Below are positions 1 to 32,000 of a stretch of 32,000 bases of DNA, piece after piece. The first letter of the stretch is position 1, and every line of letters begins with the position of its first letter. The position numbers and the translations under genes were made by a program. The DNA lies in the NCBI GenBank assembly GCA_001761425.1, contig CP012986.1, forward strand, positions 960,001 to 992,000, written 5' to 3'. The notes below the pieces were generated by a model, which ran no database searches, was not told the origin of the DNA, and saw nothing but the letters and a program-made list of their open reading frames with translations. Source of the DNA: Candidatus Saccharimonadota bacterium (GTDB taxonomy: Archaea; Nanohalarchaeota; Nanosalinia; Nanosalinales; Nanosalinaceae).

Positions 1-159
1 AAGAATATCAAGGAAGAGATTGACTGTTTCAAGCGTTATCATAACCAAGATTTGGTGAAAAACCTGTTTATAATTACTGGTTCCTGGGTGCAAAGAACCT
101 CTGAAACAGTTTCAGGAAACCATTAAAAGCCTGTAACCCGAAATTTTTCCTGTGATAAC

Positions 160-501
160 ATGGTAGAAGTCCCAGAAGATACTGAAGTAGAAGACCTTCC
201 GTTCACACACGCAAGGATCAAAAGAATGATCAGGGAGAAAGCAGACGAAGGCCAGTACGTACGCTCAAACGTTTACTACGGCCTCAACCTGCTTCTCGGC
301 GAAATCGCAGAAGAAATCATCGACAACATGATGGAAACAGACGCAGCATACGTCGAAAAACACCACCTCGACCACGCAGCAAGGAAATATGAAAAAGTCG
401 AAAACATCATCCAGGAAAAAGAACGCGTCTCCAGAAAACTCGAGGCACTCTCCGCAGACGTCCAAAAACTATCCCGCGAAGTACAGCAAAGCGACCACTG
501 A
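160..501 (+). CDS. Histone-fold protein (archaeal histone / NF-Y / NC2-like) with a C-terminal coiled-coil extension
   Basis: The 113-aa ORF has an N-terminal part that reads as a histone fold. Helix a1 is LPFTHARIKRMIRE, long helix a2 is VYYGLNLLLGEIAEEIIDNMMET and a3 is LDHAARKY. A roughly 40-aa heptad-like tail follows (KVENIIQEKERVSRKLEALSADVQKLSREV). Confidence 0.6.
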   Translation: MVEVPEDTEVEDLPFTHARIKRMIREKADEGQYVRSNVYYGLNLLLGEIAEEIIDNMMETDAAYVEKHHLDHAARKYEKVENIIQEKERVSRKLEALSADVQKLSREVQQSDH

Positions 502-583
502 AGGCCTCAAAAACAAGGCCTCACATATTTTTCCCCAGTTCTTCACACCATTTGATTTATTCTTTGACCCCAACTTTCACATT

Positions 584-928
584 ATGAGGTTCGAAAGCGA
601 AGTAGTAAGCGAGGAACTTCTCCCAGCGATCAGATCCATCATGGCCTCACAGCTCAAACAGGAATACGGCCTCAAACAGAAAGAAATCGCAGACAAAATA
701 GACATCACACAGCCCGCAGTAAGCCAGTACCTCTCAGGAAACCGCGCCAACCAGAAAATAGTCGACAAGATGAAAGACGACCCACAGATCGAAATCATAA
801 TCAGAGACGCAGTCAGCAACGCAGCCAAAGACCAAGAATTCAGCCAGGAAATAAGCCAGGCCATACAAACCGTCAGAGACAAAGGCCTCCTCAAAGAAAA
901 ATTCTCAGACACCGAAAAAATCATCTGA
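584..928 (+). CDS. XRE/Cro-type helix-turn-helix transcriptional regulator (small archaeal COG2522-like)
   Basis: The tracked ORF 389..928 overlaps the previous gene, so the internal ATG at 584 is the plausible start. The HTH segment is LKQKEIADKIDITQPAVSQYLSGNR. Confidence 0.7.
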   Translation: MRFESEVVSEELLPAIRSIMASQLKQEYGLKQKEIADKIDITQPAVSQYLSGNRANQKIVDKMKDDPQIEIIIRDAVSNAAKDQEFSQEISQAIQTVRDKGLLKEKFSDTEKII

Positions 929-972
929 TTTTTTTCCAGGTTTTTAGAAAATCTCTGGTTTCCATCCAGAGA
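929..972. terminator. Bidirectional terminator-like region between convergent genes, with oligo-T runs and a perfect hairpin
   Basis: A T7 run at 929-935 immediately follows the TGA, and a T5 run lies at 941-945. The hairpin TCTCTGG-tttccat-CCAGAGA at 952-972 has a 7-bp stem. Confidence 0.4.
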
Positions 973-1011
973 AAATCATTTACTGACATAAAAAGAAGGA
1001 AAAAATATGTT

Positions 1012-3006
1012 TTACGTGAATCCCTGGAAGGCATAACTCTCCGCTTCCTCAAGTTCTTCCTCTTCTTCCGCGACAAGTTCGCTGAACTTTTCGACCGCAT
1101 TCTCCAGAGGCTCTGCTGAAAGCTCGTACTGCCCTGCGGTTTCCTGAACTTTCTGGACAGGTTCCTCAAGAACTTCAAACTCTTCCTGAAGAGCCTCAAA
1201 GTCAAGGTAGTATTCCTCGCTGAAGAACGCGACATAGGCCAGACCTCCGCCTCCAAGGCCTACGAAAAGAAGCAGGAAAAGGCCTACAGCCTGGTTCCTC
1301 TGCGCTGTCTCATGCTGTTTTTTGACTTCTTCATAGGTATTTGACGCAGCCTGGAACCGGTTCTCAACGTTTTGCAGATGACTTTTGACCCTGTAAAGAT
1401 TGCCGTTGCTTTTGGCTTTCTCTGCTGACTCCATGCTGGAGAAGAAGCCGGAGGTATTTGACTCAAGTTTCTCCTTTCTTGAATCCGAGAGGCCTTTCTC
1501 AAGGTCTGAAACATTTTTCTCCAGAGCCTCGTACTTCTTATAATATTCACTGTACTTACTGGTTATCCTGTCTTCCTGATTCTTGTTTGCCTCTACAACG
1601 AAATCCATTTCCCGGGATGTATCAGGACTTTCTGTAGAAAAAGTCAGACTGTGTTTCCCGAGGTCAGTGTCTTCAGTGTCGATTGAAAACATCAGTTCAG
1701 TGCTGTTTCCAGGCCTCAAGTCTTGAACAGTCCTTGAATCATTCAAAACCTGTGAATCAATGTTTAGCTCCATTTCACCGATGAAAAGATCGCCTGTGTT
1801 GGTCACGTTGGCATAGATTATCTTCGAGTCTCCTGCCGTGACACTGGCAGAGTCATCTACACTCAGGCTTGCAGAAGGCTCTGCATCAGGCCTGAAATCG
1901 AAACTGAATTCTTCACGGACACTTATCTTCCCGGACTTATCTCTTACCCAGACATAGACCGTGTGCTTCCCGGCTTCAAGGCCTTCAGTGCCGACCCTGA
2001 ACTCTCCCTCTGCTTCCTGGTGGGAGATTTCTTTCCCTCTGTCATCGCCGTACTGCATTTCATCGATCTGATAATGGATCGTGTCTACGTCAAGGCCTTG
2101 GACATCTTTTGAATCGTAGGCATCGTAGGAAAGCTGGAAGTCGCTGTTGAAAACTCCTACAACTGCTGAAAGGTTTCCTACCTCTGGACTGGTCTGATCA
2201 AAGAAATACTCTCCGATTTCTACGGTTTCGCTGTTACCTGCCTCATCTTCCAGGACGATTTCCATGTCATAGCTTATGTCGAATCCTACCGGCTGATGTT
2301 CACAGGTGAAGTCCTCGCTGTCATCAATGTCCTCGAAATCCGAGAAGCCGTCGAACCAGCTGTCAGGACTGCACTTAATCCTTACCTCGGATTCGTCCTT
2401 CTGGTCTAGAGAAACAGTGAACCTTTCAGGCCCTCTACCATCAAACACCTGAGGCCCCGGACTCACCTCTGGATCACTATCTCCTTCAAACCGGTTGTCG
2501 TAAACAAATTCTTCATTATAACTTAGTTCGTTACCGTATTCGTCTTCAGCAACTATATTTAGATCGTAGGAACTGTCATGGCTCAACTTATTTTCTGGAA
2601 AGTTAACTTCAAGTTCTCCAGAACAGGATTCATCTCCACAGTCAAAGTTCTGATCCAGAGCATCTCCATTGTCTATCTCCACATCCAGATCGGTTACTTC
2701 ACTTTGATCTGACATCTCGAACTGGACAGGTCCAAACTCCGAATTTACCCTATCTTGTAAATTATTACTTTCTATCTGAGGTTCTTCATTGTCAACAGTA
2801 AGCTCTACAGAATCAGATCCGTTACCCTGATCCCTGGAAACTTCTATCGTCATCTCGCCGCTTGTCACATAATCGTCAGTATCGAACGAATAGTCTGTAT
2901 AGGATCCATTGGCAGTTACTGTAGCCAGGTCATTGGAGCTAGAACCAGAATAGGCCAGAGTGATAGAATAGTCCTCACTACTGTTTGTAGTGAAATTTAG
3001 CGTCAC
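1012..3006 (-). CDS. Large acidic cell-surface protein with tandem Ig-like/CARDB-like beta domains, a coiled coil, one C-terminal TM anchor and an acidic cytoplasmic tail
   Basis: The 664-codon ORF starts at GTG 3006. Domain boundaries recur about every 100 aa (EEPQIESN, SDPEVSPGP, QTSPEVGN, PDAEPSASL). The segment SVTAGDSKIIYANVTNTGD...LRPGNSTELMFSIDTEDTDLGKHSLTF looks CARDB-like. The TM segment is AVGLFLLLFVGLGGGGLAYVAFF. An in-frame signal-peptide-like extension runs upstream to 3132 (see findings). Confidence 0.8.
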   Translation of the reverse strand: MTLNFTTNSSEDYSITLAYSGSSSNDLATVTANGSYTDYSFDTDDYVTSGEMTIEVSRDQGNGSDSVELTVDNEEPQIESNNLQDRVNSEFGPVQFEMSDQSEVTDLDVEIDNGDALDQNFDCGDESCSGELEVNFPENKLSHDSSYDLNIVAEDEYGNELSYNEEFVYDNRFEGDSDPEVSPGPQVFDGRGPERFTVSLDQKDESEVRIKCSPDSWFDGFSDFEDIDDSEDFTCEHQPVGFDISYDMEIVLEDEAGNSETVEIGEYFFDQTSPEVGNLSAVVGVFNSDFQLSYDAYDSKDVQGLDVDTIHYQIDEMQYGDDRGKEISHQEAEGEFRVGTEGLEAGKHTVYVWVRDKSGKISVREEFSFDFRPDAEPSASLSVDDSASVTAGDSKIIYANVTNTGDLFIGEMELNIDSQVLNDSRTVQDLRPGNSTELMFSIDTEDTDLGKHSLTFSTESPDTSREMDFVVEANKNQEDRITSKYSEYYKKYEALEKNVSDLEKGLSDSRKEKLESNTSGFFSSMESAEKAKSNGNLYRVKSHLQNVENRFQAASNTYEEVKKQHETAQRNQAVGLFLLLFVGLGGGGLAYVAFFSEEYYLDFEALQEEFEVLEEPVQKVQETAGQYELSAEPLENAVEKFSELVAEEEEELEEAESYAFQGFT

Positions 3007-3429
3007 ATCACCTGAAACAGTATCACCATCATCAGGCGTAGGATCCTGAAACTGAACTGCCGAAACTGTTCCAAGGGTTAATGTTAGGGCGATTAGAAGG
3101 AGGCCTGTTTTCTGTGTGAGGTCGTGGTTAATAACCTATCACTGTTTATTGATTGAGTCAGGAATGTTTAAGTAAATTTTTCGGAATTTTCTGGTCTTTG
3201 TACGGTCAGGCCTTGGATTGTCTGTCTTTTTTCTCCGTTTCTGGAGGGCCTTCTGTATTATCTATTTGTTCCTAAGCCTATTAAGTTCTTTTGTTACTTT
3301 TTGATGATCAACCTGTCCTCTAGGTGATGTGGATGGTTGAGGCCTTGAATTGTTTTTGTAGAATGCTGTGGCGATGAGAACTACCGGTTTTCTGAAGGCC
3401 TTGAGTATGTGAGGTTTTACTGGTTTTTT

Positions 3430-4857: not shown

Positions 4858-5069
4858 ATCAACTAATTGAATACCAAGAAATAAAATCTGTGGGCCTCAG
4901 GTAAGGCCTTGAATTTCTGCCACCGGATTCATCAGGAAATTGCTATCACTCATCATAGTTTCTTCCATGTCAAGGAAGTAACTTCGTTGAGTTATTCCCA
5001 AAAAAAAGATTCTGATAATTTATTTGGGAAACAAGTTTTTCCGTAGTAGAAAACCAGGATTTGAGGCCT

Positions 5070-5219
5070 TCAGTCTCTGATCTTTTTCCAGAGTTTTCTC
5101 CAGACTTTTTGAAATATCTTGAACTCTATGTATGTCTTGACGTATTTTCTGCCGTTTCTTTTGAAGTGGTAGAAGGCCTTTTTCTCGGCTTTTTTCTTTG
5201 CTTTGCGTTTTACTCCCAT
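5070..5219 (-). CDS. Possible small, very basic protein (49 aa), below the ORF-track threshold
   Basis: I translated it manually as MGVKRKAKKKAEKKAFYHFKRNGRKYVKTYIEFKIFQKVWRKLWKKIRD. The ATG at 5219 lies 31 nt downstream of the trkA stop on the same strand. The tracked plus-strand ORF 5061..5306 has the F/L/C-rich look of an antisense artefact. There is no clear SD and no homology that I recognise. Confidence 0.3.
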   Translation of the reverse strand: MGVKRKAKKKAEKKAFYHFKRNGRKYVKTYIEFKIFQKVWRKLWKKIRD

Positions 5220-5250
5220 AACTGGTTATCGTGCTTTGAACGGTTTATTT

Positions 5251-7869: not shown

Positions 7870-9054
7870 ATGAAAGGAGTACCTGAAGCGAACATAGGCC
7901 TTGTAGGCCACGTAGATCACGGAAAGACTACTCTTACAAACGCTCTGTCTGGCAAATGGACGGATGAACACAGCGAAGAGCTGAAGAAAGGAATCACGAT
8001 AAGACTTGGTTACGCCGACATCACCTATTATAGAGACGATGAAGGCCTTAATGTTGATGGGAACGGCGAGGAGGAACGAACTGTTTCTCTTGTCGATGCT
8101 CCTGGTCACGAGACTTTGATGGCCAACGTTCTTTCCGGAGCTGCGATCATGGATGGAGCTATCCTTATCATCGCTGCCGATGAAGAGTGTCCTCAGCCTC
8201 AGACACGTGAGCATCTCGCAGCTTTGGATATTATCGGAATTGATAATATCATAATTGTACAGAACAAGATCGACCTCGTTGACGAAGATCAGGCGAAGCA
8301 AAACTACGGGGAGATTCAGGAGTTCGTTTCAGGTACTGTAGCAGAGGATGCGCCTGTCGTACCGATCTCTGCACAGCACGAGGTTAACATCGACGCACTT
8401 CTCGAAGCTCTTCACAGAGAGATTCCTACACCGGAAAGAGACTTTGACAGCGATCCGAAGATGCTTGTGGCAAGAAGTTTCGACATCAACAAGCCAGGAA
8501 CAGATCCTGAAGACATTAGAGGAGGAGTACTGGGCGGAAGCCTCGTACGCGGAGAACTTGAGGGAGAAGACGAGATAGAAATCAAGCCAGGCCTCAGAAA
8601 CGGAGATGACTGGCAGACGGTTACTACAAAAGTTGAAAGCATCATCCAGGGAAACAGTCCTGTCGATAAAGGAAGGCCTGGAGGCCTTATGAGCGTGGAG
8701 ACAGAGCTTGATCCTGCTACGGCTAAATCCGACGGCCTTTCAGGTAACGTATTAGGCCTCAAAGGAGAATTGCCGGATATTACCTCGGAGATAGAGGTAG
8801 AGGTCGAATTAATGGATCGGCTTGTCGGTGCAGAGGACGAACAGGAAGTTGATAACGTTAAGGAGCATGAGGCCTTGATGATCAACGTGGGCACATCCAA
8901 GTCCGCTGGAATCGTGACACAAGCCGGTAAAAACGTCAGGCTTGATCTTAAAGTTCCTGTATGCGCCGAAGAAGGAGACAGAGTTGCTATTTCCCGCCAG
9001 GTAGGGTCACGCTGGCGTCTTATAGGCCATGGAACGATTAAATCTGTCGAGTAA
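7870..9054 (+). CDS. eif2g: Translation initiation factor aIF2, gamma subunit
   Basis: GTPase motifs are GHVDHGKTT, DAPGH and QNKID, and the C-terminus ISRQVGSRWRLIGHG is typical of aIF2-gamma. The start is 3 nt after the rps6e stop. Confidence 0.93.
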   Translation: MKGVPEANIGLVGHVDHGKTTLTNALSGKWTDEHSEELKKGITIRLGYADITYYRDDEGLNVDGNGEEERTVSLVDAPGHETLMANVLSGAAIMDGAILIIAADEECPQPQTREHLAALDIIGIDNIIIVQNKIDLVDEDQAKQNYGEIQEFVSGTVAEDAPVVPISAQHEVNIDALLEALHREIPTPERDFDSDPKMLVARSFDINKPGTDPEDIRGGVLGGSLVRGELEGEDEIEIKPGLRNGDDWQTVTTKVESIIQGNSPVDKGRPGGLMSVETELDPATAKSDGLSGNVLGLKGELPDITSEIEVEVELMDRLVGAEDEQEVDNVKEHEALMINVGTSKSAGIVTQAGKNVRLDLKVPVCAEEGDRVAISRQVGSRWRLIGHGTIKSVE

Positions 9055-11432: not shown

Positions 11433-11435
11433 AAG

Positions 11436-18534: not shown

Positions 18535-18639
18535 ATGATCGAAAATCACAGCTTCTCCCGACTTAAAGGCCTATCAGGCCTTCAGGCAAGAAACCTGGAA
18601 GGTTTCGGACAAGCCGAGAACCACGAGGCGATCTTCTAA
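18535..18639 (+). CDS. Small ORF A (34 aa), paralogue of ORF B; its stop overlaps the spt4 ATG (TAATG)
   Basis: I translated it manually as MIENHSFSRLKGLSGLQARNLEGFGQAENHEAIF. It starts 3 nt after the rpoE1 stop. Homology to ORF B runs exactly from ATG to stop (see findings). Confidence 0.5.
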   Translation: MIENHSFSRLKGLSGLQARNLEGFGQAENHEAIF

Positions 18640-18827: not shown

Positions 18828-18839
18828 AAACGTGATACT

Positions 18840-18947
18840 ATGTACAAAAATCAAAGATTTTTTGGACTCAAAGGCCTTTCAGGCCTTTTTCAGACAAGAA
18901 ACCTTCAAGGTTTCGGACTAGCAGAAACTCACAAAGGTGAGTTTTGA
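18840..18947 (+). CDS. Small ORF B (35 aa), paralogue of ORF A; its stop directly abuts the rps24e ATG (TGAATG)
   Basis: I translated it manually as MYKNQRFFGLKGLSGLFQTRNLQGFGLAETHKGEF. Confidence 0.5.
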   Translation: MYKNQRFFGLKGLSGLFQTRNLQGFGLAETHKGEF

Positions 18948-19391
18948 ATGGAAGCAAAGATTACAGCCGTAAAGGAAAACCCTCTCCTAGACAGGAGAGA
19001 AGTAGAAGTAGAAGTAAAACACGAACAAGAGGCCACACCAAGCAAAGAAGGCGTCGCAGATCGAGTTGCAGCAGAAAACGGCCTCAACACAGACGAAATA
19101 GACGTAGAACACGTCTACACAGGCTACGGAAGACAGGAGTCCAAGGCCTTCCTCAAAGTCCACCAGCAGTTCGAATACGACGAAGAACTTCAGGAAGAAA
19201 CCATCGAAGAAGAGGAAGACGTACAGGTCACAGAAGAATACGCAGAAATTGTCTCAGGAACCATCACAGAAGCTAAGAACCAGCTGAACGAGATGGAAAA
19301 TCCTGACTTCAAGGCCTCACTCAAAGCAGAAAAAGAAAACAAAAACCGTACAACACTCATCGACTGGCTTGAAAGCCAGATCGAAGGCTGA
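18948..19391 (+). CDS. rps24e: 30S ribosomal protein S24e with a C-terminal extension of about 45 aa
   Basis: The N-terminus [27 protein letters not shown]...[16 protein letters not shown] matches the S24e pattern. It has the conserved archaeal neighbours spt4 upstream and rps27ae downstream. Confidence 0.9.
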
Positions 19392-19429
19392 AGGCCTTCT
19401 CAAAAATCTCTTCACGAGGTGAACAGATT

Positions 19430-21310: not shown

Positions 21311-21754
21311 ATGACGAGAGATGCTGATATGCTCAGGCAGAAGGCCTCGGATTTCTTCGACATTGTGACAGAGGCAGACAGCGAAGAAGTTGATTACGCC
21401 GGTGAGATGGTCAGAAGAGCTTTCTGGCTGGCAGACGAAGGTGAAAAATATCAGGATGAGAACAGGGATCTGGAGAATCACTTCTACGATTCCGCAGAGA
21501 ACTTCCTGAGAGAGGCCTTCGAAACCGTGGGTCTGGACGGCGATATCGCCAGGCATCGAAGAGACTGGTGGCAGGGATACAGACACGGAGAGATCAGAGA
21601 CAGCTCAATAGAAAAAGATCTAGAAGAAATTCTGGGAGAGAAGTACGAGCCCAGAGATCTAAACAACTTCAAGAAGGCAGCTTATGCACACGATGAAAAT
21701 AACTGGGAAAAAGCTTTCGAACTACTGGAACCAGTATACCAGAAGGTGGTGTAG
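21311..21754 (+). CDS. Hypothetical protein, predicted helical, acidic with W/R/H-rich patches
   Basis: The 147-aa ORF has a stop that directly abuts the ATG of the YrdC/Sua5 gene (TAGATG). I recognise no motif. Confidence 0.6.
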   Translation: MTRDADMLRQKASDFFDIVTEADSEEVDYAGEMVRRAFWLADEGEKYQDENRDLENHFYDSAENFLREAFETVGLDGDIARHRRDWWQGYRHGEIRDSSIEKDLEEILGEKYEPRDLNNFKKAAYAHDENNWEKAFELLEPVYQKVV

Positions 21755-22342: not shown

Positions 22343-22343
22343 G

Positions 22344-24026
22344 ATGTTACTGGCAGCTAGCTGGGCTCAGAATTTTGCATTGATGATTATAACTGCAGCT
22401 GTGCTTGGAGCTGTTGCCAGAAAGACGAAACAGCCAACAGTTATCGCCTATATCATTACAGGCCTTTTGCTCGGTCCTTTCTTCCTCGATATAATTGCAG
22501 AGACTGAGGGGACCAAACTCCTAGGGGAGCTAGGGTTGAGCTTTCTTCTATTCTTGATAGGCCTTGAGATAAAGCTGGATGAGATTAGAGAGATCTTCAG
22601 CGAGGTCTCTGTCATTGCGGTAGCTCAGATTTCGGTTTCCGCTGTGCTTGGTTACCTAGCGGGCCAGGCCTTTGGCTTCTCATTTATTGAATCAGTTTTC
22701 GTAGCTGCTAGCTTTACCTTCTCATCGACAGCAGTAGTGGTAAAGCTCCTGTCCTCAAAAGACGAGATTTCAACTCTTCCCGGAAAAATTGGGGTAGGAG
22801 TTCTCCTGATACAGGATGTCGTGGTCGTACTTTTACTCGCTCTGTTATCAACGAGTGCTTCAACTCCTTCACAGATAGTTGCAAGTATTGCAGAGATCGC
22901 TGTAATGATCAGTGTTATCGCAGGAGTATCTTACCTCTCCTCAGAGAAACTGCTGCCCAGGGTTTTCAGAAAAGTCTCAGAGAACCGTCAGGCCTTTTTC
23001 ATCCATGGCGTGACCTGGGCTTTCCTTTTCATCACTTTATCAGACAGTCTCGGAGTCTCAACAGAAATAGGAGCATTCTTCGCCGGCCTAAGCCTGGCAC
23101 AGCTCCCTTACAGCCATGAACTTATTGAAGAGATAAGGCCTCTAACAGATTTCTTCATGGCCGTATTCTTCATAAACATAGGTTTAGGCCTCACAGGAAA
23201 CGCATTATCCACCTACATGGTTGAGGCCTTTGTCGCAGCAAGTATTTTGATGATCGGGAAGTTTGCTGTTCTTTTCTTCACTATCGACCGCCTGAAGTTT
23301 ACACCGGAGACCTCGCTGAAGTCTGCACTTAACCTTAGTCAGATGAGCGAGTTCTCACTTATTCTTGGTTCGTTAGGAGTCAGTAAAGGCCTTATTTCCC
23401 CTGAAATCTTTGGCTTCATCAGTTTGACAATGATCATTACCGTGGGCTTTTCCTCTTACTTTATCGTCTTCAATGAAAAGATATACAGGCGTTTTGAGCA
23501 TTTGTTAGCAAGGATTGATTCTGAGGCGAAGAAGGATGTTGACGTGGATGTTCTTGAGGACCACGCTCTGATCATAGGCTATGATTTTATCGGGAGGCGC
23601 TCTGCGGAGATCCTTGATGACGCCTACGAACGGGTTATGGTAGTTGACAGAAACTCTAACAACGTAAACAGACTGAGCAGATCAAGTTACGAGTACATTT
23701 ACGGCGATTTCGGGCATGGAGAGATAAGAAATGCCTCCCAGATCGATAAGGCAGATTTTATCCTTAGTCTTGTACCCGATATCAATGTGAACAGGAAGAT
23801 TGTTGAGGAGGCCTCGCCGGAAGCCGCGGTTTTCGTGAAAGGCGACAGTCTAGAGGATGCCACAGAGCTTTACGACCTCGGAGCACATTACGTTATTCAG
23901 AAAAACGAATTAGTTGGCGAGAAGATGGGAGAGTACCTGAAACTTTACTTGGAGGATGAAGAGCTTTTCCATGAAGAAGTGAAGAGAGACAAGGAAAGAA
24001 TTGAATGGGGTGACAGAAGTGTCTGA
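22344..24026 (+). CDS. Kef-type monovalent cation:proton antiporter (CPA2) with a C-terminal RCK/TrkA-N domain
   Basis: It has about 12 TM helices, with PTVIAYIITGLLLGP near the N-terminus, followed by the soluble domain HALIIGYDFIGRR...VVDRN. The start is 1 nt after the tsaC stop. Confidence 0.85.
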   Translation: MLLAASWAQNFALMIITAAVLGAVARKTKQPTVIAYIITGLLLGPFFLDIIAETEGTKLLGELGLSFLLFLIGLEIKLDEIREIFSEVSVIAVAQISVSAVLGYLAGQAFGFSFIESVFVAASFTFSSTAVVVKLLSSKDEISTLPGKIGVGVLLIQDVVVVLLLALLSTSASTPSQIVASIAEIAVMISVIAGVSYLSSEKLLPRVFRKVSENRQAFFIHGVTWAFLFITLSDSLGVSTEIGAFFAGLSLAQLPYSHELIEEIRPLTDFFMAVFFINIGLGLTGNALSTYMVEAFVAASILMIGKFAVLFFTIDRLKFTPETSLKSALNLSQMSEFSLILGSLGVSKGLISPEIFGFISLTMIITVGFSSYFIVFNEKIYRRFEHLLARIDSEAKKDVDVDVLEDHALIIGYDFIGRRSAEILDDAYERVMVVDRNSNNVNRLSRSSYEYIYGDFGHGEIRNASQIDKADFILSLVPDINVNRKIVEEASPEAAVFVKGDSLEDATELYDLGAHYVIQKNELVGEKMGEYLKLYLEDEELFHEEVKRDKERIEWGDRSV

Positions 24027-25671
24027 GATACTCTACCTACTGACCGCCATTTTCGGGATATCCTCTTTCCTAATCTTCATACTTGAGAGATACTCACATC
24101 CATATCTGCCCGCCTATATCGCCTCAGGCCTTGTTATAGGACAGTTCGTAGATCCTGCAAGCTTCTACTCTCTGGCCGAAATAGGCATAGCATTCCTGGT
24201 ATTCATATTCGGCCTGAAATTAGAGCCGGAGAAGCTGAAAACAGTTGTAAAGGAAAGCCAGGCGATGACAACAGTCCAGGTCTCCGCAGTAGGCCTCCTG
24301 ACCTTCCTGGCCGGTATCTTACTAGGCCTTGAAGTCATGGACTCCGTGTACCTGAGTATCACTACCTCACTCAGCTCTTCACTGATAGGGATGCAGTTGC
24401 TGAACAGAGAGATCGAGATAGATATCCTGCACGGTAGACTGGCGGAATCCACACAGCTCATACAGGACATGATCGCCATAACAGCCATAATCGCCTTGAA
24501 CGCAATGCATTCGAGTTCAAGAACAATCATAATTCATATGCTACTGGGCGTAGGCCTTCTAGTGGTCGCAGGCCTTACAAGAAGGTATTTATTCAGCAGG
24601 ATCGCAGAGCTGATCGATGAGGAAAGAGAGCTTATGGTGCTTACAAGCCTTGGCTTTTTGACAGGTTTCATCGCTGTAGCACAGACTCTAGGCCTTTCGA
24701 CTGTTGTAGGTGCGTTCGCTGCCGGTGTAGCGATCTCCAAGTTTCCTTACAACATCGAGGTCATCGATACTATGGAGCCTCTGAAAGACTTTTTCTCAAT
24801 ACTGTTCTTCGTTTCCATAGGCGCACTAGTTGTGTTCCCCAGCCTGAAGATACTTTTAATAGCCGTTGTCCTATTATTTCTCTCCCAGGTTGTGAAGCCT
24901 GCGGTGGCAATGACCGTATTGATAGCGCAGGGATATGATAAGAGGACTGCCCATTTAACAGGCCTTAACATTGATCAGATAAGCGAGTTTTCACTTATTG
25001 TCGCCATACAGGCCTTTATTGGAGGATTGATTGGACAGGATGCGTTCCAGGGTATTATACTGGCAGCTTCGGCTTCATTCCTGATCTCTTCTTACACCAG
25101 TCGGCACGGTGAGATTATACATCAGAAGTTGAACTGGTTCGAGCCTTTCAGACCTACTAACAGGAAAGTCAGGGAAAAAACCAGTGCTGAAGGCCTTGAA
25201 GACCATGTTATCCTGATTGGTTATGACACACAGGGTAAACTTATCGTAGAAGCTCTGGAGGATGAAGGCGAGGATCTTGTGATCATTGAGAACAATCCTG
25301 ACCGGATAAATGAGGTGATGGAAGCCGAGGAAAACTATGTCTTCGGCGATGCCATGGATATCTCTTCCTGGGACGAAGCAAATTACAGGGATGCAGAGCT
25401 GATAATCTCGACAGTACCTATTAAAGATGTCTCAGAACAGATTATAGGCCTGGAGACAGAAGCTGATAAGATCATCAGATCCAATGCTATGGAGGAAGGA
25501 GCAGAGTTCGTAGAAAAAGTATCCTACGTTGAAGTACCGGATCTCATGGCTTCTGAAAGACTGGCAGACCACATCAAAGGAGTAATGGAAGACCCGAGTT
25601 ACAAGGATGAACTCAGGAGAAGAAACCTTTTAGAGCTTAGGAAACTTCTAAACGAACAGGAAGAAAAATGA
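24001..25671 (+). CDS. Second Kef-type CPA2 antiporter with an RCK/TrkA-N domain (tandem paralogue)
   Basis: It has the same architecture (PAYIASGLVIGQF ... HVILIGYDTQGKL...IIENN). The start is uncertain between TTG 24001, GTG 24010 and GTG 24019, and all three overlap the upstream stop at 24024-24026. Confidence 0.85.
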   Translation: MNGVTEVSEILYLLTAIFGISSFLIFILERYSHPYLPAYIASGLVIGQFVDPASFYSLAEIGIAFLVFIFGLKLEPEKLKTVVKESQAMTTVQVSAVGLLTFLAGILLGLEVMDSVYLSITTSLSSSLIGMQLLNREIEIDILHGRLAESTQLIQDMIAITAIIALNAMHSSSRTIIIHMLLGVGLLVVAGLTRRYLFSRIAELIDEERELMVLTSLGFLTGFIAVAQTLGLSTVVGAFAAGVAISKFPYNIEVIDTMEPLKDFFSILFFVSIGALVVFPSLKILLIAVVLLFLSQVVKPAVAMTVLIAQGYDKRTAHLTGLNIDQISEFSLIVAIQAFIGGLIGQDAFQGIILAASASFLISSYTSRHGEIIHQKLNWFEPFRPTNRKVREKTSAEGLEDHVILIGYDTQGKLIVEALEDEGEDLVIIENNPDRINEVMEAEENYVFGDAMDISSWDEANYRDAELIISTVPIKDVSEQIIGLETEADKIIRSNAMEEGAEFVEKVSYVEVPDLMASERLADHIKGVMEDPSYKDELRRRNLLELRKLLNEQEEK

Positions 25672-26240
25672 AGGAAAAAGGCGCGGAGGCAACAGTCAGG
25701 GTCACGGAGGGAAAAGTTCTCAAGAACCGGAAAGTGAAAAAATACCGGCACAGACAGCTCGATAAAAAGATAAGAGAGGAACGCACAGAGACCGAAGTAA
25801 AACTTATGAAAGAAGCTATAAAGTACGGAGTGAACGCGCCAAGGCCTGAAAAGAAAGATGAATCAAAGATAGAGATGGAAAAGATCGATGGAAGGCCTGT
25901 AAAAGAAATAATCGGAGAAAAACCGGAAATCATAGAATACCTCGGGGAAAACATCGCAAAGCTTCACTCAGCCAACATTATCCACGGCGACCTGACAACC
26001 TCAAACGCTCTGTACGATGAAGGCCTTTACGTCATCGATTTCGGACTTGCGTTCCACTCCGACAGAATCGAAGACAGAGCTGTCGACATCCATCTGCTGA
26101 AACAGGTACTGAACTCCTCGCACCCGGAAGTTGCGGATGAGGCCTGGAAAAGTTTTCTACAAGGTTACAGAAGCTATGAGGAAAGCGATGAGGTACTTGA
26201 ACAGCTTGAGGAAGTTGAGAAACGCGGAAGGTACAAGTAA
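25668..26240 (+). CDS. bud32: Bud32 / Kae1-associated serine/threonine kinase (KEOPS subunit)
   Basis: Motifs are KGAEATV, IHGDLTTSN and IDFGL. The ATG overlaps the upstream stop (ATGA). Confidence 0.9.
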   Translation: MKEKGAEATVRVTEGKVLKNRKVKKYRHRQLDKKIREERTETEVKLMKEAIKYGVNAPRPEKKDESKIEMEKIDGRPVKEIIGEKPEIIEYLGENIAKLHSANIIHGDLTTSNALYDEGLYVIDFGLAFHSDRIEDRAVDIHLLKQVLNSSHPEVADEAWKSFLQGYRSYEESDEVLEQLEEVEKRGRYK

Positions 26241-26244
26241 AGGC

Positions 26245-27015
26245 CTAGTCCAACCGGTAGGATTCGTAGACTGATATCTGGCCTTCTTTCTCAACACATT
26301 CATCTGTCTCTCTGATCTGGTAGGCCTTGGTTGTCCTGTTTTCTGTCTCTGGTAGGTGGTATCGGGCTTTCAGTTCCATCTCCATAGTCCCTTTTCCGGG
26401 GACTGTGTCGTCCTTTCTCTCAGTATAGACATCTACTCTTGCGTTCTGTGTGCATGCCCTGTAGTTCGGTGTTTCAAAGGCTCTTGGCAGCAGAAACTCG
26501 TTGGTTACCCGGACTGTTCCGAGCGCAGTTTCCTGTCTATCTGTCATCTCCGCAGAGTTCCTGAGTTCCAGGTTTATCTCTGGCTGAGGGCCGGATATAT
26601 CGAAGATGAAAAGACCTACTATCAGGATAGTGCCTGCTGTAACTAGGTATTTTGCTTTTTTCTCAGGTATCTGGATTTCTTTCTCGCTTATCATGTATCC
26701 TGCTGCGAGGAAAACTGCGGATGATCCTGCGAGGATGAGGAAAGTAGCTGCGGATCCGAAGTCAAATCTCAGTAAGGTGTACGGTACGAAGATCAGGTAA
26801 GATATCGATGCGAGGAAGTAAAGAGGTATACTCCATTTTGAAACCGTGAGTCCTGTACCTGCGAAAAACGTTACTGAAGTGAGGAAGAGTATAGCTGACT
26901 TGACCACGGGAGATATCTCCAGGATCACCTCCATCCCGAAATAAAGGATGGTGAAAAGCCCGAATAACATTCCCAGGACATAAAAAGCACTTGAAGAGGA
27001 CAGGCCTTTCCGCAT
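26245..27015 (-). CDS. Hypothetical membrane protein with about 5 TM helices and a C-terminal extracytoplasmic domain
   Basis: The 256-aa ORF has a hydrophobic N-terminal 150 aa and then a soluble domain. I recognise no motif. Confidence 0.6.
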   Translation of the reverse strand: MRKGLSSSSAFYVLGMLFGLFTILYFGMEVILEISPVVKSAILFLTSVTFFAGTGLTVSKWSIPLYFLASISYLIFVPYTLLRFDFGSAATFLILAGSSAVFLAAGYMISEKEIQIPEKKAKYLVTAGTILIVGLFIFDISGPQPEINLELRNSAEMTDRQETALGTVRVTNEFLLPRAFETPNYRACTQNARVDVYTERKDDTVPGKGTMEMELKARYHLPETENRTTKAYQIRETDECVEKEGQISVYESYRLD

Positions 27016-28029: not shown

Positions 28030-28086
28030 ATGAACGAAATTACAAGAATTTCTGAATTTGCAGAAACTCACAGAGGCGAGTTTTGA
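28030..28086 (+). CDS. Short upstream ORF C (18 aa), a truncated relative of ORF B, ending 2 nt before the rps15 ATG
   Basis: I translated it manually as MNEITRISEFAETHRGEF. Its last 28 nt are near-identical to the 3' end of ORF B. It may be only a shared leader or SD context. Confidence 0.3.
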   Translation: MNEITRISEFAETHRGEF

Positions 28087-28088
28087 AC

Positions 28089-28526
28089 ATGACAAGAATG
28101 CATTCTGACGGTAGAGGCGTTTCTGGATCTTCCAAACCTGTTGACGCAAAACAGCCTGAGTGGATCGATTACGATGCTGAAGAGGTCAAGGACCTTGTTG
28201 TAAGGCTTCGTGAAGACGGTTTTGACCCTGCTCAGATCGGTCTGAAACTGAGGGATGAGTACGGTATCCCCGATGTCCAGCAGATCACAGAGAAAAAGGT
28301 TACAGAGATTCTCAAGGAGGAAGATGTTGCTCCCGAGATACCTGAAGACCTGAAGAACCTGGTAGAAAAAGCAGAGAACATGAAAGAGCACCTGGACGAA
28401 AACCAGAACGACCAGGAAGCAGAGAGACAGCTCGAGCTGACAGAAGCGAAGGTCAGGAAAGTCGCAGACTACCACAGACAGGAAGGCAACATCCCAGAGA
28501 ACTGGGAATACGAAAGAGACGAGTAA
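28089..28526 (+). CDS. rps15: 30S ribosomal protein S15 (uS15)
   Basis: The N-terminus MTRMHSDGRGVSGSSKP is typical of archaeal S15. The ATG at 28089 is preferred over the tracked TTG at 28083. Confidence 0.9.
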   Translation: MTRMHSDGRGVSGSSKPVDAKQPEWIDYDAEEVKDLVVRLREDGFDPAQIGLKLRDEYGIPDVQQITEKKVTEILKEEDVAPEIPEDLKNLVEKAENMKEHLDENQNDQEAERQLELTEAKVRKVADYHRQEGNIPENWEYERDE

Positions 28527-28622
28527 AAGGCCTCTCACACATATCTCTACTTTTCTATCCATCTTTATTTCCAGGCCTATCTGCGTAAGGTTCAAGAAAA
28601 CAGAGGTCTATTCCCAGTTACA

Positions 28623-30005
28623 ATGGTCGATGACATACTTGAAGTAGCGAAGCCAGCAGCCCAGAGACTCAAAGAATACAACGGGAGCATCAGACTGATA
28701 GGCCAGTACGACGCAGACGGGATATCTGCCACCGCTATAGCCCATAGAATGCTCGAAAGACTCGATAAAGAGTTCGAATACGAAATTGTCAAACAACTGT
28801 ACGAGGAAGACATCGAACGTATCGCTGACGAAGATCAAGATCTTCTCGTGTTCGTAGACATCGGCTCAGGTCAAAGTGAACTGATCAAAGAACATATACT
28901 CGAAACAACGGGGAAAAAAGTAATCATCTCCGACCACCACGAACCAGCGCTCGAAAGCGGGGAATCAGAAGGCCTGGAAAACCTTATACACATGAACCCG
29001 CACTACCTGGGACACGACGGAGGAGAAGCGATCTCAGCAGCAGGAATGACCTACCTGCTTTCAAAAGCTGTAAGCAAAGATAACACAGACCTTATACAGT
29101 TCGCCCTGATCGGTGCGACAGGAGACGTCCAGAAACAGGAAGGAGAATTCATAGGCCTCAACAAAGACCTGGCGGAAGAAGCCATCGAGAACAGCTACGT
29201 AGAAAAAAGACAGGGCCTTGACCTGTACGGAAGAACGACAAAATCCCTGCAGAAATCTTTAATGTATACTACAGACCCGCATCTAGAAGGAGTAAGCAAC
29301 AACGAGTCAGGAGCCATCCAGCTCGTCAAGTCCTCAGGCCTTAACATCAGAGATAACGGAGACTTCCGCACACTGGCAGATCTGACTCCTGAAGAAGAGA
29401 AAAAACTGATACACACCATGATAAAACGTGGCTTCCCTGTCCAGCATCTATTAAACGATATCTACACCCTAGGTAACGGCTACGAAATCGACGAATTCTC
29501 CACAATCATCAACGCCTGTGGAAGACTGGGAGAACCGAAGAAAGGAGTCAAGATTCTACTTGAAAACGATCTGAATCTTGCGGAAAAGATCTCAAGGAAA
29601 TACGGCCGAAGAATTTCCTCAGCACTCGGATACGTCGACAAAAACCGCGGAAACAAAGACGTGATCTACGAAAAAGATATCGGAGTCATCGACGGAAAAG
29701 ACGAGATCAGCGACGACTTTATAGGAACAGTCACCACTATCACAATGAGCAACGGCCACTTCGACGCACCAGTAGTCATGGGAATCGCCGAAGCAGAGAA
29801 AGACAAAATGAAAGTCTCATCCAGAGCCACCAAAGAAATCGTGGAAAAAGGCCTCAACCTGGGAGAAATCATCGGAGAAATATGCGAAGAAGTAAACGGC
29901 GAAGGAGGAGGCCACAACATCGCAGCAGGAGCCAAAATACCCAGAGAAAAAAAACAGGCCTTCATCAACATGCTTGACTCGAAAATAGAGGAAGAAATGA
30001 CCTGA
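28623..30005 (+). CDS. recJ: RecJ-like DHH/DHHA1 phosphoesterase (archaeal RecJ/GAN/Cdc45-like nuclease)
   Basis: Motifs are YDADGISA, VDIGSG, ISDHHEP and GGGHNIAAGA. The rps15-recJ adjacency is common in archaea. Confidence 0.85.
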   Translation: MVDDILEVAKPAAQRLKEYNGSIRLIGQYDADGISATAIAHRMLERLDKEFEYEIVKQLYEEDIERIADEDQDLLVFVDIGSGQSELIKEHILETTGKKVIISDHHEPALESGESEGLENLIHMNPHYLGHDGGEAISAAGMTYLLSKAVSKDNTDLIQFALIGATGDVQKQEGEFIGLNKDLAEEAIENSYVEKRQGLDLYGRTTKSLQKSLMYTTDPHLEGVSNNESGAIQLVKSSGLNIRDNGDFRTLADLTPEEEKKLIHTMIKRGFPVQHLLNDIYTLGNGYEIDEFSTIINACGRLGEPKKGVKILLENDLNLAEKISRKYGRRISSALGYVDKNRGNKDVIYEKDIGVIDGKDEISDDFIGTVTTITMSNGHFDAPVVMGIAEAEKDKMKVSSRATKEIVEKGLNLGEIIGEICEEVNGEGGGHNIAAGAKIPREKKQAFINMLDSKIEEEMT

Positions 30006-30027
30006 AGGCCTGAAAAAATTTTTGACT

Positions 30028-30525
30028 TTAGTTTTCAGTTTCCACAGCCAGTTCTATACCGTGACTACGGATTAATTCTGTCCCGTTCCGGTTTGTGTTG
30101 AAGATCCTCTCGTACAGGTTGTCTTCTTCAATCAACTTGGTTAAATACTCCGTAGGCGAAAGCTTCACTGACCGACATCCAATATTTAGAGGTAGCGTAG
30201 AATTCGAGATAGTTCCCTCGTAGATTCCACAGTGATGCTCGACATAAATCGGAGTAACACACCTTAATCCCGAAGTATTTACTCCAATACGTTCATCGTT
30301 CAAACTTCCATAACATTTCAGTTTCCCAGGACATGAAGCATGATACTCTGCCTTACTGGAGACTCCAATCCCACAGGACTTATTTGAAACATGCTGAGAT
30401 AAATCTGCTCGCGTAATACCATTCATTAAAGCAGTAAAAGGTTCACTAACCAACCACCCTGAAACTCCTAGAAATAATACCAGAGTGACCACTGTTACTT
30501 TGCTTTTACCTAAGCTCCTGAACAT
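30028..30525 (-). CDS. Cysteine-rich secreted or membrane-anchored protein, hypothetical
   Basis: The ATG at 30525 gives MFRSLGKSKVTVVTLVLFLGVSGWLVSEP as a signal or anchor sequence. Seven Cys follow in the mature part. The protein is not acidic like its neighbours. The tracked start at 30585 overlaps the upstream gene. Confidence 0.6.
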   Translation of the reverse strand: MFRSLGKSKVTVVTLVLFLGVSGWLVSEPFTALMNGITRADLSQHVSNKSCGIGVSSKAEYHASCPGKLKCYGSLNDERIGVNTSGLRCVTPIYVEHHCGIYEGTISNSTLPLNIGCRSVKLSPTEYLTKLIEEDNLYERIFNTNRNGTELIRSHGIELAVETEN

Positions 30526-30569
30526 AAAAGAAACATCTCCTTGGTTTCTGATAATTTTTAGAATTTTAA

Positions 30570-30902
30570 TTATTGCGTCATCCAATTGCCGTTAAGGATA
30601 TTTTCCGTTGTCTCTGCTGTGGTTGCAACTGGTTCTCCAGAGGAAGTACTCGCGTGATGCACTCCTGCTACATAGGCGTCTCCGCTTCCTTTGAGATTAT
30701 TACTCCAACCTGCTACATAAGCTACTTCTTCATTTGGATCAAAGGAGACATCACCTATTTGAACTGTGCCTCCATCCAGATTTAGAATATTTCCGGTTAT
30801 ACCAACTGCACCAACGCCTTTGACGAATTCACGCCGATTTAAATTGTCCACGAAACTCTCACTAACAATCAACATATTTCTCTCGTTTAAGTATTTTTGC
30901 AA
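30570..30902 (-). CDS. Small secreted protein with a twin-arginine (Tat) signal, hypothetical
   Basis: NRREFVKGVGAVGITG matches the Tat consensus (S/T)RRxF(L/V)K followed by a hydrophobic stretch. An alternative start is the ATG at 30875. Confidence 0.6.
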   Translation of the reverse strand: MQKYLNERNMLIVSESFVDNLNRREFVKGVGAVGITGNILNLDGGTVQIGDVSFDPNEEVAYVAGWSNNLKGSGDAYVAGVHHASTSSGEPVATTAETTENILNGNWMTQ

Positions 30903-30991
30903 ACATATCTACAAAAAAGTTAACAGAAGGCCTGAACTCCAGAAAAACAGGCTTTCATCCACGAACTCGACAGTAAGATGTAAGGGATGGA

Positions 30992-31744
30992 TTAACCGTA
31001 AAGATGTTTGACCGCTTCATCAGCCAGTTCTCTGGTTTCCTCCTCTGAAAGCTCTGGAAGCTCCTCAACTTCAAGGCCTTTCTCCCTTATTATCCAGTGG
31101 AAGATTTCGAAAGATACGGGATAACCTTCTGCATTCTTCCAGTCATCGCCTCCATGGTCAAAGAAACTGCTTTCAGGCCTTTCCTTCTCCAGTTCGTCCA
31201 TAATCCTTTCGTGGTCGAAGTCATTTCCAAGAGTTCTGAAATTGGGCTTCCAGCCGTAGCCTTTCACCTCGTCAACTTTTCTGGCAGAGTTCGTGGAATG
31301 GCCCTCAAAAAGCACGCTGTTATAGTTAGAGCCATTCAATCTTTCTGAAAGCTCCTCGTCGCTGTAATGACTATAAAAATCGATGTGAGAGCCTTCATGG
31401 ACTGTCATGTTCTTCAGCGCAGGCCTCCAGTCATCTCTGGAATCGTTCGCATAGAGGAAGATAAAATTTCTTTCAAAACTGTCGAACCAGGAGCCGAAAG
31501 TGAAGCCGTAAACATGGAAATTTGTCCCTGCGTCCTCACCCCACTTTTCCCTGATCTTTTCAGGATCTGCAAGGCCGAAAACTACCTCTGCATCGCCTTC
31601 TCTGCCTAAGACTTCCTCCGCATCAGATAAGGCCTCTTCTATAACTTCCCTGTACTTCTCAACTCCTACAGGCTTTTCAAGCACTTCCTCGAAATCTTCC
31701 CAGAGGTAGTCATCCTCCTCCGGATCATAGGTTTGAAATTTCAC
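30992..31744 (-). CDS. Hypothetical acidic protein with a single HExxH motif (possible zinc metallopeptidase)
   Basis: The 250-aa ORF starts at GTG. It contains MTVHEGSHIDF and, downstream, LFEGHSTNSA. The family is not identified. Confidence 0.55.
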   Translation of the reverse strand: MKFQTYDPEEDDYLWEDFEEVLEKPVGVEKYREVIEEALSDAEEVLGREGDAEVVFGLADPEKIREKWGEDAGTNFHVYGFTFGSWFDSFERNFIFLYANDSRDDWRPALKNMTVHEGSHIDFYSHYSDEELSERLNGSNYNSVLFEGHSTNSARKVDEVKGYGWKPNFRTLGNDFDHERIMDELEKERPESSFFDHGGDDWKNAEGYPVSFEIFHWIIREKGLEVEELPELSEEETRELADEAVKHLYG

Positions 31745-31779
31745 TGGAGAAACTTGCGGAGATTAAACTTTAGTAATTA

Positions 31780-32000
31780 TCACCTGTACTCTTCCAGCGA
31801 GACAGCTCCATCCATATTCTGCTCAAAAACCGGATCCATCTCCGAGTGAGAATCCCTGATACTCTCTGAAAGGCCTTTACCCATGTAGAAGCTTCTCAAA
31901 GGCTGACCTTCGCTGAAAAGACTTACCTGGTAATCGATCTCAGGGAAAGGCATTACCTCCTCGAAGTACTGAGTGTCGTGAAGGCCTTCAGCCTCTTTAT
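31780..32000 (-). CDS. 3' end of a CDS that runs off the window (C-terminal 72 codons)
   Basis: I translated the minus strand manually as ...KEAEGLHDTQYFEEVMPFPEIDYQVSLFSEGQPLRSFYMGKGLSESIRDSHSEMDPVFEQNMDGAVSLEEYR, with the stop at 31780-31782. The composition is acidic like the neighbours, and the product is not recognised. Confidence 0.4.
   Translation of the reverse strand, partial: KEAEGLHDTQYFEEVMPFPEIDYQVSLFSEGQPLRSFYMGKGLSESIRDSHSEMDPVFEQNMDGAVSLEEYR

Follow-up and report, generated by a model that had tools for sequence, protein, structure and literature searches.

AGGCCT as a highly iterated palindrome in nanohaloarchaeal genomes

What kind of force can fill a genome with a single six-base word is the question raised by a 32,000-bp stretch of contig CP012986.1 (the window, meaning the whole stretch of DNA that was analysed), in which the palindromic hexamer AGGCCT occurs 148 times by exact count, or 4.6 times per kb, dispersed and, being a palindrome, present on both strands. 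The window comes from a genome that we infer to be that of the nanohaloarchaeon (DPANN) Ca. Nanopetramus SG9. By sequence-level criteria, AGGCCT qualifies as a highly iterated palindrome (HIP), both in this genome and in one or more other nanohaloarchaeal lineages that were affected independently. The force behind it acts genome-wide on the DNA duplex, blind to strand, frame and gene; it is specific to particular lineages, in each of which it is still upheld separately. Under its influence nearly all positions at which synonymous codons permit the site have become AGGCCT, site-compatible peptides are more numerous, and non-coding DNA is loaded twice as densely as coding DNA. The mechanism tentatively favoured here, with somewhat less than an even chance of being right, is a transferable system recognising a StuI-type hexamer, likeliest a solitary methyltransferase accompanied by a process that reads its mark.

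The base composition of the window (46.5% GC) leads to an expectation of 6.7 copies, 100 dinucleotide-preserving shuffles gave 7.3 +/- 2.9 copies with a maximum of 17, and the density of GC-matched relatives (0.234 per kb) would yield about 7.5, the window standing 18-fold above those relatives. The original prediction, based on a hand tally, had arrived at about 148 copies, which the exact count reproduces, and at an excess of about 25-fold over some 6 expected copies; the strong excess stands, and its size is 20-22-fold over the 6.7-7.5 copies now expected. AGGCCT ranks first among the hexamers of the window, where the next palindromic hexamer, GATATC, is found 21 times and the 18 one-base variants of AGGCCT are found 3-15 times apiece; AGGCCT accounts for 68% of all GGCC tetramers. 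A maximal-order Markov null, which predicts 139 copies, was set aside as invalid, as the 5-mers AGGCC and GGCCT on which it draws are themselves inflated by AGGCCT.

An excess of this kind could be an artefact, produced by amino-acid and codon usage, by a dispersed repeat element or by assembly, and the codons involved (GGC, CTT/CTG, AGG, CCT and GCC) are indeed fairly frequent in the window. Genes of both strands hold about 123 sites, which occupy all three frames, and the other 25 lie within non-coding DNA or touch it. In the set of 30 genes used for shuffles and frames (refined to 35 with the help of gene calls that accompany the source contig), 21 sites are read as AGG-CCT, 37 as xAG-GCC-Txx and 65 as xxA-GGC-CTx, in agreement with the claim that both strands and three frames are affected. 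Permutation of synonymous codons within genes (1000 runs) left 18.6 +/- 3.9 sites, with a maximum of 31, and permutation of codon order left 8.6 +/- 3.0, against the 123 genic sites observed; as had been anticipated, protein need is therefore insufficient to explain the count. The same bias is seen from the side of the opportunities, that is, the places where synonymous codons would allow the site: 121-122 of 159-164 (about 75-77%) are filled in the window, AGGCCT being the chosen encoding for 21 of 30 Arg-Pro, 65 of 80 xxA-Gly-Leu and 36 of 49 [KQE]-Ala-Txx occurrences, and the per-gene table shows nearly all of a gene's own opportunities filled in nearly every gene. For the eIF2-gamma gene the predicted distribution was exact, with five sites read as xxA-GGC-CTx, one as AGG-CCT and one as xAG-GCC-Txx (starts 7896, 8043, 8589, 8674, 8682, 8754 and 8870). 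Moreover, non-coding DNA, with 25 sites in 2796 bp (8.9 per kb), has twice the coding density, which codon usage would not produce. A dispersed element is contradicted by the flanks: no conserved flank past +/-1 and no longer repeat family were found around the sites of the window, and the copies have no alignable sequence outside the hexamer, as repetitive extragenic palindromes (REP) or miniature inverted-repeat transposable elements (MITE) would have. Finally, the excess recurs in independent assemblies from separate projects (the loci designated L001, L002, L004, L008, L210 and L211, and the JGI and Logan assemblies of the same genome). The eIF2-gamma protein of the window recurs without a single substitution on a JGI metagenome contig of 1,125,078 bp and on contigs from run SRR2630167, at loci that are 100% identical to the window in nucleotide sequence. 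Explanations by codon usage, a repeat or assembly are already refuted, and the chance left to them is negligible.

The taxonomic spread was assessed in 80 loci around the eIF2-gamma gene from species-representative genomes. The excess is confined to nanohaloarchaea, and to some of these only, being patchy among 33 nanohaloarchaeal loci. The window and the loci L001, L002, L004 (Ca. Nanosalina sp. VS9-1) and L008 are rich in AGGCCT (18-23-fold); L014 (strain M3_22, 8.7-fold) and L018 are intermediate, at about 8.5-fold; more than 20 others, including Ca. Nanosalina J07AB43, stay at a baseline of about 1-2-fold; and L022, L023, L024 and L025 contain no AGGCCT at all and 7-26 GGCC per locus, a pattern that resembles avoidance of a GGCC-type restriction target. 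In the window itself the reverse of restriction-site avoidance is found, AGGCCT being over- and not under-represented. Three more metagenome-derived relatives are rich in the hexamer (13-21-fold). Density across rich genomes is 4.2-4.7 per kb, and the fill of synonymous opportunities rises from 0-15% in poor genomes through 23% in L003 and about 50% in L014 and L018 to 64-92% in rich ones; the intermediate clade is also enriched in the half-sites AGGCCN and NGGCCT. A viral contig of 10.8 kb (IMGVR_UViG_3300031867_007516; 53% GC) carries 22 dispersed AGGCCT, about 2 per kb, and may derive from a virus whose host shares the trait. A scan of IMG/VR with a clustered-AGGCCT pattern mostly matched tandem repeats, and the pattern had no match in the window itself.

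The rich genomes do not form one lineage. In a neighbour-joining tree of ten concatenated proteins (3041 columns, 200 bootstraps), a clade A (window, L001 and L002) and a clade B (L004 and L008) were each recovered with 100% support, as was the union of clade B with poor Nanosalina relatives, and the union of A and B received 0%. The proteins of A and B are on average 64% identical. Since A and B are not sisters, AGGCCT must have undergone two or more amplifications, or otherwise many losses, and repeated amplification of the same hexamer points to a transferable determinant.

Whether the positions themselves are inherited was addressed with codon-mapped alignments. Sites of the window are shared by L001 in 41 of 56 cases, by L004 in 22 of 51, by L008 in 12 of 35 and by poor genomes in 0-6, and where the amino acids agree the partner carries AGGCCT near its own fill rate (41 of 47 in L001, 22 of 26 in L004). 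Because the rate of sharing matches each genome's own fill, it reflects a common rule and not inherited positions. In the conservation test devised for HIP1, the well-known cyanobacterial HIP, AGGCCT scores S values of 0.73, 0.52, 0.43 and 0.34 against 0.20, 0, 0.06 and 0.08 for control palindromes (0.73 against 0.20 for L001 and 0.43 against 0.06 for L004), and its constituent codons are far more conserved within the site than outside. This result, together with the fill, bears out the earlier suggestion of a HIP1-like palindrome towards which codon and context choice is bent; at 64-92% saturation, independent refilling gives the same result, so that the conservation test does not separate selection from drive. 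The effect extends to the proteins. Compared over shared orthologous segments, site-compatible peptides number 14-19 per 1000 residues in rich genomes and 7-13 in poor ones, an increase of 40-50% over poor orthologues that is replicated when clade B is compared with its poor sisters; Gly-Leu is raised in rich genomes and the reverse dipeptide, Leu-Gly, is not.

How a methyltransferase might produce this pattern can be outlined as follows. A horizontally transferable system would recognise AGGCCT in the manner of a Type II (StuI-type) enzyme; a solitary DNA methyltransferase would mark the site, and a second process would read the marked site, either by preferential repair or by preferential exchange or recombination of marked DNA from kin, in line with current proposals for HIP1. 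Each new AGGCCT would then gain a small advantage in transmission or fitness, and the genome would ratchet toward saturation. The determinant is thought to be transferable because the rich clades are not sisters and because other lineages avoid GGCC as they would under GGCC-type restriction. The link to methyltransferases is indirect: AGGCCT is a known methylated target of restriction-modification (RM), as AgGCcT in Alcanivorax borkumensis (PMC12128166); in the intermediate strain M3_22 (CP046106.1) the single RM-related gene listed is an orphan Type II methyltransferase producing N4-methylcytosine (m4C) (PMC10609329); and cyanobacterial HIPs are sporadic and co-occur with cognate methyltransferases, and their one-off variants differ from the motif chiefly at its ends (PMC4390886).

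Several observations weigh against this reading. No methyltransferase, nuclease or Vsr gene was found in the window, whose open reading frames were scanned with Pfam, PADLOC and NCBIfam, or in about 18 kb of flanks (about 10 kb on the left and 8.5 kb on the right of the source contig), which together make up about 50 kb of a 1.125-Mb genome, and regular expressions for the motifs of 5-methylcytosine (m5C) and N4/N6 methyltransferases matched nothing in the nanohaloarchaeal loci examined. If near-sites were subject to strong conversion, one-off variants should have become scarce, yet overall they are not depleted (4.88 per kb against 4.60 in 213 kb of GC-matched poor relatives). Interference between sites is significant in the window and not in L001, L210, L004 or L008. 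To our knowledge, DNA exchange between nanohaloarchaeal cells has not been described. The only published nanohaloarchaeal methylome, that of SVXNc, which is not an AGGCCT-rich strain, gave the motif GDGcHC. A bolder form of the proposal, in which AGGCCT would be a transferable kin-DNA watermark of DPANN archaea, with a mobile methyltransferase and its reader rewriting genomes of about 1 Mb down to the amino acids of core proteins, and with marked DNA being preferentially repaired, exchanged or retained, seems unlikely. If it were true, the intermediates and the independent amplifications, two or three in number, would be natural replicates of the birth and decay of a HIP, and the GGCC-avoiding genomes would show how the same conflict can end in the opposite way.

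The composition of the near-sites bears on a different explanation, namely that AGGCCT is a neutral by-product of biased very-short-patch (VSP) repair, in which deamination of methylated cytosine is met by Vsr-like T:G correction and near-sites are over-corrected; one variant is the methyl-directed ratchet of the Elhai type, which predicts outer-position one-offs and saturation (PMC4390886). Relative to the poor relatives, outer-position variants (NGGCCT and AGGCCN) are 1.1-3.4-fold enriched and variants at positions 3 and 4 are at 0.47-0.95 of their level, so that the statement that one-base variants are not enriched holds for absolute counts and fails in this comparison. Near-saturation of independent opportunities looks like a drive acting at each site and not like a density requirement, as repair would have it; the words AGGTCT/AGACCT, derivable by C4>T, are at 0.58 and AGCCCT/AGGGCT at 0.47 of the poor relatives, and a single C5>T-type loss was seen among the three changes at AGGCCT between the window and the strain represented by L085/L086 (98% identity over 8.8 kb), a number too small to generalise. 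Yet AAGCCT/AGGCTT, the T:G-derived pair that arises by C5>T, remains at 0.88, the two low ratios fall at or close to the lower limit of the 5-95% range of all hexamers (0.51-1.55), and the summed one-off variants show none of the depletion that over-correction would leave. T:G correction would mend two cytosine positions only, yet all six positions are driven, and the rise in peptides implies a force that outweighs cost at the protein level. No vsr, mutS or mutL gene was seen in the roughly 50 kb scanned, and the effect of VSP repair on oligomer counts in E. coli is far smaller than 20-fold. A very-short-patch drive, one of the causes first proposed, is accordingly disfavoured, the T:G-derived variants not being clearly depleted, and we regard it as rather improbable.

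The spacing of the sites was considered in relation to another possibility, that AGGCCT binds an abundant dimeric DNA-binding or nucleoid protein and is kept dense and even for chromosome organisation, methylation not being required. A role of this kind has been proposed for HIP1 by Xu et al. (PMC5861425), a palindrome suits a dimer, and the conservation of AGGCCT above control palindromes would be expected. Short gaps are about half as frequent as an exponential model predicts. When compared with random filling of the available opportunities, the window is more even (per-kb variance/mean 0.48 against 0.81, p = 0.001; coefficient of variation of the gaps 0.80 against 0.89, p = 0.013). In a separate comparison, the unfilled opportunities of the window lie closer to an existing site (median 65 against 107 bp, p = 0.002), a result that L001, L210, L004 and L008 do not reproduce. 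In the relatives, evenness against random filling is borderline in L008 and L004 and is not seen in L001, L210 or L002, and the pooled deficit of short gaps is modest (59 against 69 +/- 4.3, p = 0.0125). Under this null, most of the apparent lack of short gaps reflects where the opportunities lie, so that the claim of interference was downgraded, and even spacing is weak evidence only. A fill of 64-92% exceeds any spacing need, two or three origins of the same hexamer would require transfer of the binding protein, and no candidate protein is known; a nucleoid function, too, is rather improbable.

The immediate surroundings of the sites add little to the word itself. The base at -1 is preferentially A in clade A (AAGGCCTT) and G in clade B (GAGGCCTC), and the hexamer alone is common to both; an extended motif was considered and rejected on these grounds, a low frequency of T at -1 being general before AGG. 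Tests for strand-oriented motifs such as Chi or the FtsK-orienting polar sequences (KOPS) gave no indication of that class, AGGCCT being its own reverse complement. Three hairpin-forming pairs of AGGCCT, two of them with T-runs, lie 3' of genes according to predicted folds (Table 1). Of the gene-end arrangements that had been listed earlier, TGA followed directly by AGGCCT is present at 499-507 and at the two other places named; both tandem pairs exist, each with coordinates one base off those given; and the site said to join two convergent stops does follow a TAA, but the supposed plus-strand TAG is not a stop there, the minus-strand stop being read as CTA and overlapping the last two bases of the site. 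The hairpin pairs at gene 3' ends probably represent a secondary use of an abundant self-complementary word, as far as fold predictions can tell. Two short repeated elements are found, one at 18581-18624 and 18889-18932 and the other at 18921-18948 and 28060-28087, directly upstream of the spt4, S24e and S15 genes; copies of the 28-nt element, GCAGAAACTCACARAGGYGAGTTTTGAA, are 93% identical, and the repeats may serve translation and transcription genes as a common promoter or leader. Scans of the window for tRNA genes and Rfam families gave no match.

Predicted hairpin pairs at gene ends, together with the occupation of all frames, the bent peptides and some evenness, would also fit a methylation-independent word for uptake or kin recognition, spread by molecular drive in the manner of the uptake signal sequence (USS) of Haemophilus and the DNA uptake sequence (DUS) of Neisseria. 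These are 9-12 nt long, non-palindromic and found about once per kb, and are served by a known receptor or competence apparatus. As is generally known of them, USS and DUS are likewise hyper-abundant on both strands and affect peptides within genes, and pairs of them form terminator-like hairpins, as the fold predictions suggest for some pairs here; AGGCCT differs in being a 6-bp palindrome at about 4.5 per kb, with no known uptake system and without the oriented 9-12-nt core. Nanohaloarchaea have been reported to lack most nucleotide biosynthesis and to possess giant surface proteins with VirB4/TraG-like ATPase domains (PMC10266531), and a 2026 preprint proposes HIP1 as an uptake watermark. 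A 6-mer nevertheless gives little specificity, neither competence nor DNA exchange is in evidence in nanohaloarchaea, and HIP1 is reported in that preprint to raise transformation in a methylation-dependent way, an effect with which the proposal merges into that of a methylated and read site. As a separate explanation, methylation-independent uptake appears very improbable.

Set beside known systems, AGGCCT shows every sequence-level trait of a HIP that was examined, and by sequence it belongs to that group. HIP1 (GCGATCGC) is likewise a short GC-rich palindrome, 15-300-fold over-represented in coding DNA (in all frames) and in non-coding DNA, without a longer repeat; it is conserved above control palindromes, with codons more conserved inside the motif (PMC5861425), and its one-offs deviate mainly at outer positions (PMC4390886), and the same is found here, the latter relative to poor relatives. 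Nevertheless, HIP1 has eight bases and is cyanobacterial, whereas AGGCCT has six and is archaeal (DPANN); HIP1 occurs at 0.3-2.7 per kb, against 4.2-4.7; HIP1 is nearly phylum-wide, whereas AGGCCT is patchy and has arisen two or more times within a single class; the cognate methyltransferases DmtA and DmtC are known for HIP1 and none has been identified for AGGCCT; and HIP1 shows a periodicity of 10-90 kb, the spacing of AGGCCT having been assessed for local evenness within 32 kb. Closer still are the alternate HIPs of cyanobacteria, which are sporadic, lineage-specific palindromes whose sequence is proposed to depend on what a resident methyltransferase recognises (PMC4390886): GGCGCC in Calothrix PCC 7103/D253, rCCGGy in Oscillatoria PCC 10802, and CAGGCCTG, an octamer whose core is exactly AGGCCT, in Synechococcus PCC 6312 (PMC5861425). 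They include a 6-mer with an observed/expected ratio of about 15 or more. They are found in single cyanobacterial strains, whereas AGGCCT occurs in several species and two or three clades, with intermediates at 23% and about 50% fill; an extension to CAGGCCTG was not seen in the window or its relatives.

RM systems of the StuI type (AGG^CCT) share the very hexamer, which is methylated on both strands as AgGCcT in A. borkumensis SK2, but that genome has 1674 sites, not a comparable hyperabundance (PMC12128166), against the 20-fold amplification found here. In a genome with an RM system the target is usually kept or avoided, whereas the window amplifies AGGCCT and no RM gene was found in the 50 kb scanned. 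In E. coli, the Dam target GATC occurs at about 4 sites per kb by chance composition, a density at which methyl-directed repair and sequestration work. AGGCCT, a 6-mer, has been raised to this natural density of a 4-mer; unlike GATC it is amplified and not a product of chance, and no MutH- or SeqA-like reader is known here. What is new relative to the known HIPs is the domain of the host, the length of 6 bp, a density above the HIP1 range and the repeated independent origin. Full-text literature searches turned up no archaeon with a reported hyperabundance of AGGCCT, and the genome description of Ca. Nanopetramus SG9, which comes from Atacama halite, mentions neither methylation nor palindromes.

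For three decades, work on HIPs has dealt almost only with cyanobacteria, and how they arose and what they do are still debated. Nanohaloarchaea offer a clean second system, with genomes of about 1 Mb, at least two independent amplifications, sister lineages without the trait and intermediate states; the AGGCCT-rich Ca. Nanosalina sp. VS9-1 has a complete chromosome (NZ_CP180230.1), and cultured relatives exist, e.g. Ca. Nanohalobium constans. The causal gene of a HIP thereby becomes answerable by comparison of gene presence and absence. More generally, a force at the DNA level can reshape codon choice, and even peptides, in core genes of a symbiont with a reduced genome, which bears on models of codon usage, on phylogenetics and on k-mer-based binning and host prediction.

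Table 1. Positions of AGGCCT and of selected features in the window.
Feature	Position	Strand	Description
TGA stop and AGGCCT, second AGGCCT 14 nt on	499..521	+	hairpin just 3' of gene 160-501; predicted fold -9.8 kcal/mol, z = -2.6
Longest AGGCCT-free stretch	2099..3100	-	1008 bp between starts; 5' half of a 664-aa surface-protein-like gene
Intergenic region	3007..3429		4 AGGCCT in 423 bp
Intergenic region	4858-5250		3 AGGCCT; example of higher non-coding density
eIF2-gamma gene	7870..9054	+	Pfam GTP_EFTU, eIF2_C; 7 AGGCCT; 7/8 synonymous opportunities filled
Tandem AAGGCCT-ATC-AGGCCTT	18567..18581	+	predicted hairpin with 7-bp stem, 36 nt downstream of rpoE' (Rpo7 homologue); fold -13.5 kcal/mol
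Tandem AAAGGCCT-TTC-AGGCCTTT, then T-run	18872..18886	+	predicted hairpin resembling a terminator, 3' of spt4; fold -12.9 kcal/mol, z = -2.0
TGA stop of ribosomal protein S24e gene and abutting AGGCCT	19389..19397	+	Pfam Ribosomal_S24e
AGGCCT in 4-nt gap of convergent genes	26238..26247		TAA of Bud32-like kinase gene at 26238-26240; minus-strand stop (CTA) at 26245-26247 overlaps AGGCCT
TAA stop of S15 gene, one base, AGGCCT	28524..28533	+	from the flank listing
TGA stop of DHH/RecJ-like gene and abutting AGGCCT	30003..30011	+	Pfam DHH, DHH_CID, DHHA1
Two overlapping hypothetical genes	30028..30875	-	GC at third codon positions 0.32-0.37; no AGGCCT
AGGCCT starts, 1-8 kb	502, 516, 883, 1256, 1280, 1490, 1711, 1888, 1979, 2093, 3101, 3208, 3340, 3396, 3915, 4270, 4378, 4791, 4904, 5064, 5174, 5466, 5595, 6033, 6324, 6476, 6501, 6836, 6942, 7035, 7389, 7605, 7896		
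AGGCCT starts, 8-16 kb	8043, 8589, 8674, 8682, 8754, 8870, 9225, 9514, 9558, 9673, 9752, 10185, 10204, 10975, 11413, 11825, 12331, 12356, 12431, 12700, 12750, 13125, 13279, 13455, 13525, 13835, 14051, 14283, 14564, 15002, 15048, 15104, 15564, 15708, 15787		
AGGCCT starts, 16-24 kb	16078, 16314, 16460, 16688, 17036, 17291, 17396, 17562, 17807, 18036, 18450, 18567, 18576, 18872, 18881, 19144, 19312, 19392, 19589, 19855, 19879, 20049, 20260, 20457, 20505, 20874, 21089, 21147, 21214, 21342, 21513, 21808, 21916, 22042, 22239, 22460, 22559, 22666, 22990, 23136, 23186, 23224, 23387, 23809		
AGGCCT starts, 24-32 kb	24126, 24291, 24324, 24552, 24570, 24690, 24960, 25010, 25191, 25446, 25842, 25893, 26021, 26140, 26241, 26322, 27002, 27430, 27578, 27903, 27964, 28528, 28573, 28970, 29153, 29336, 29849, 29956, 30006, 30928, 31074, 31175, 31421, 31630, 31871, 31982		

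Some DNA in and near the window is poor in AGGCCT, and low-GC DNA with few or no sites may be recently acquired. To the right of the window, an island of low GC (37-44%) at 15001-19000 of the extended locus L083 (about 33.6-37.6 kb in window coordinates) has 4 AGGCCT in 4 kb, against a very uniform density of about 6 per kb in the DNA beside it; its open reading frames (ORFs) match AF_0896_M and, weakly, a viral VP3 family, and relatives of two of them were not found in IMG/VR. The two overlapping hypothetical genes at 30028..30875 may likewise have been acquired recently. Elsewhere, a 291-aa ORF without a family match (16977-17852) carries 5 AGGCCT; the closest relative, L001, otherwise collinear, lacks it and has 144 bp in place of about 1.1 kb. 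Small differences are also seen in the strain represented by L085/L086, further look-ups and a metagenome scan having brought up no additional strain, where an ArsR-family regulator and an ArsP-like permease (14750-16424 of those loci) lie between the photolyase and TrkA genes and both are missing from the window, and where the segment corresponding to 160-928 of the window (a 113-aa hypothetical protein and an HTH_3 protein) is 100% identical and its neighbours differ.

The remaining genes include five paralogous genes for ATP-grasp/RimK-like ligases at 10611-16504, some with matches to tubulin-tyrosine ligases, adjoined by a homologue of the microtubule-associated tyrosine carboxypeptidase MATCAP; the cluster is kept in many nanohaloarchaeal loci and, judged by these family matches, looks like a predicted system for ligation and removal of amino-acid tails. 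At 22344-25671, two tandem genes for Na+/H+ exchangers, each fused to TrkA-N, lie beside the gene for a Bud32/RIO-type kinase, and Kae1, Sua5 and Bud32, of the t6A pathway, are clustered at 20272-26240.

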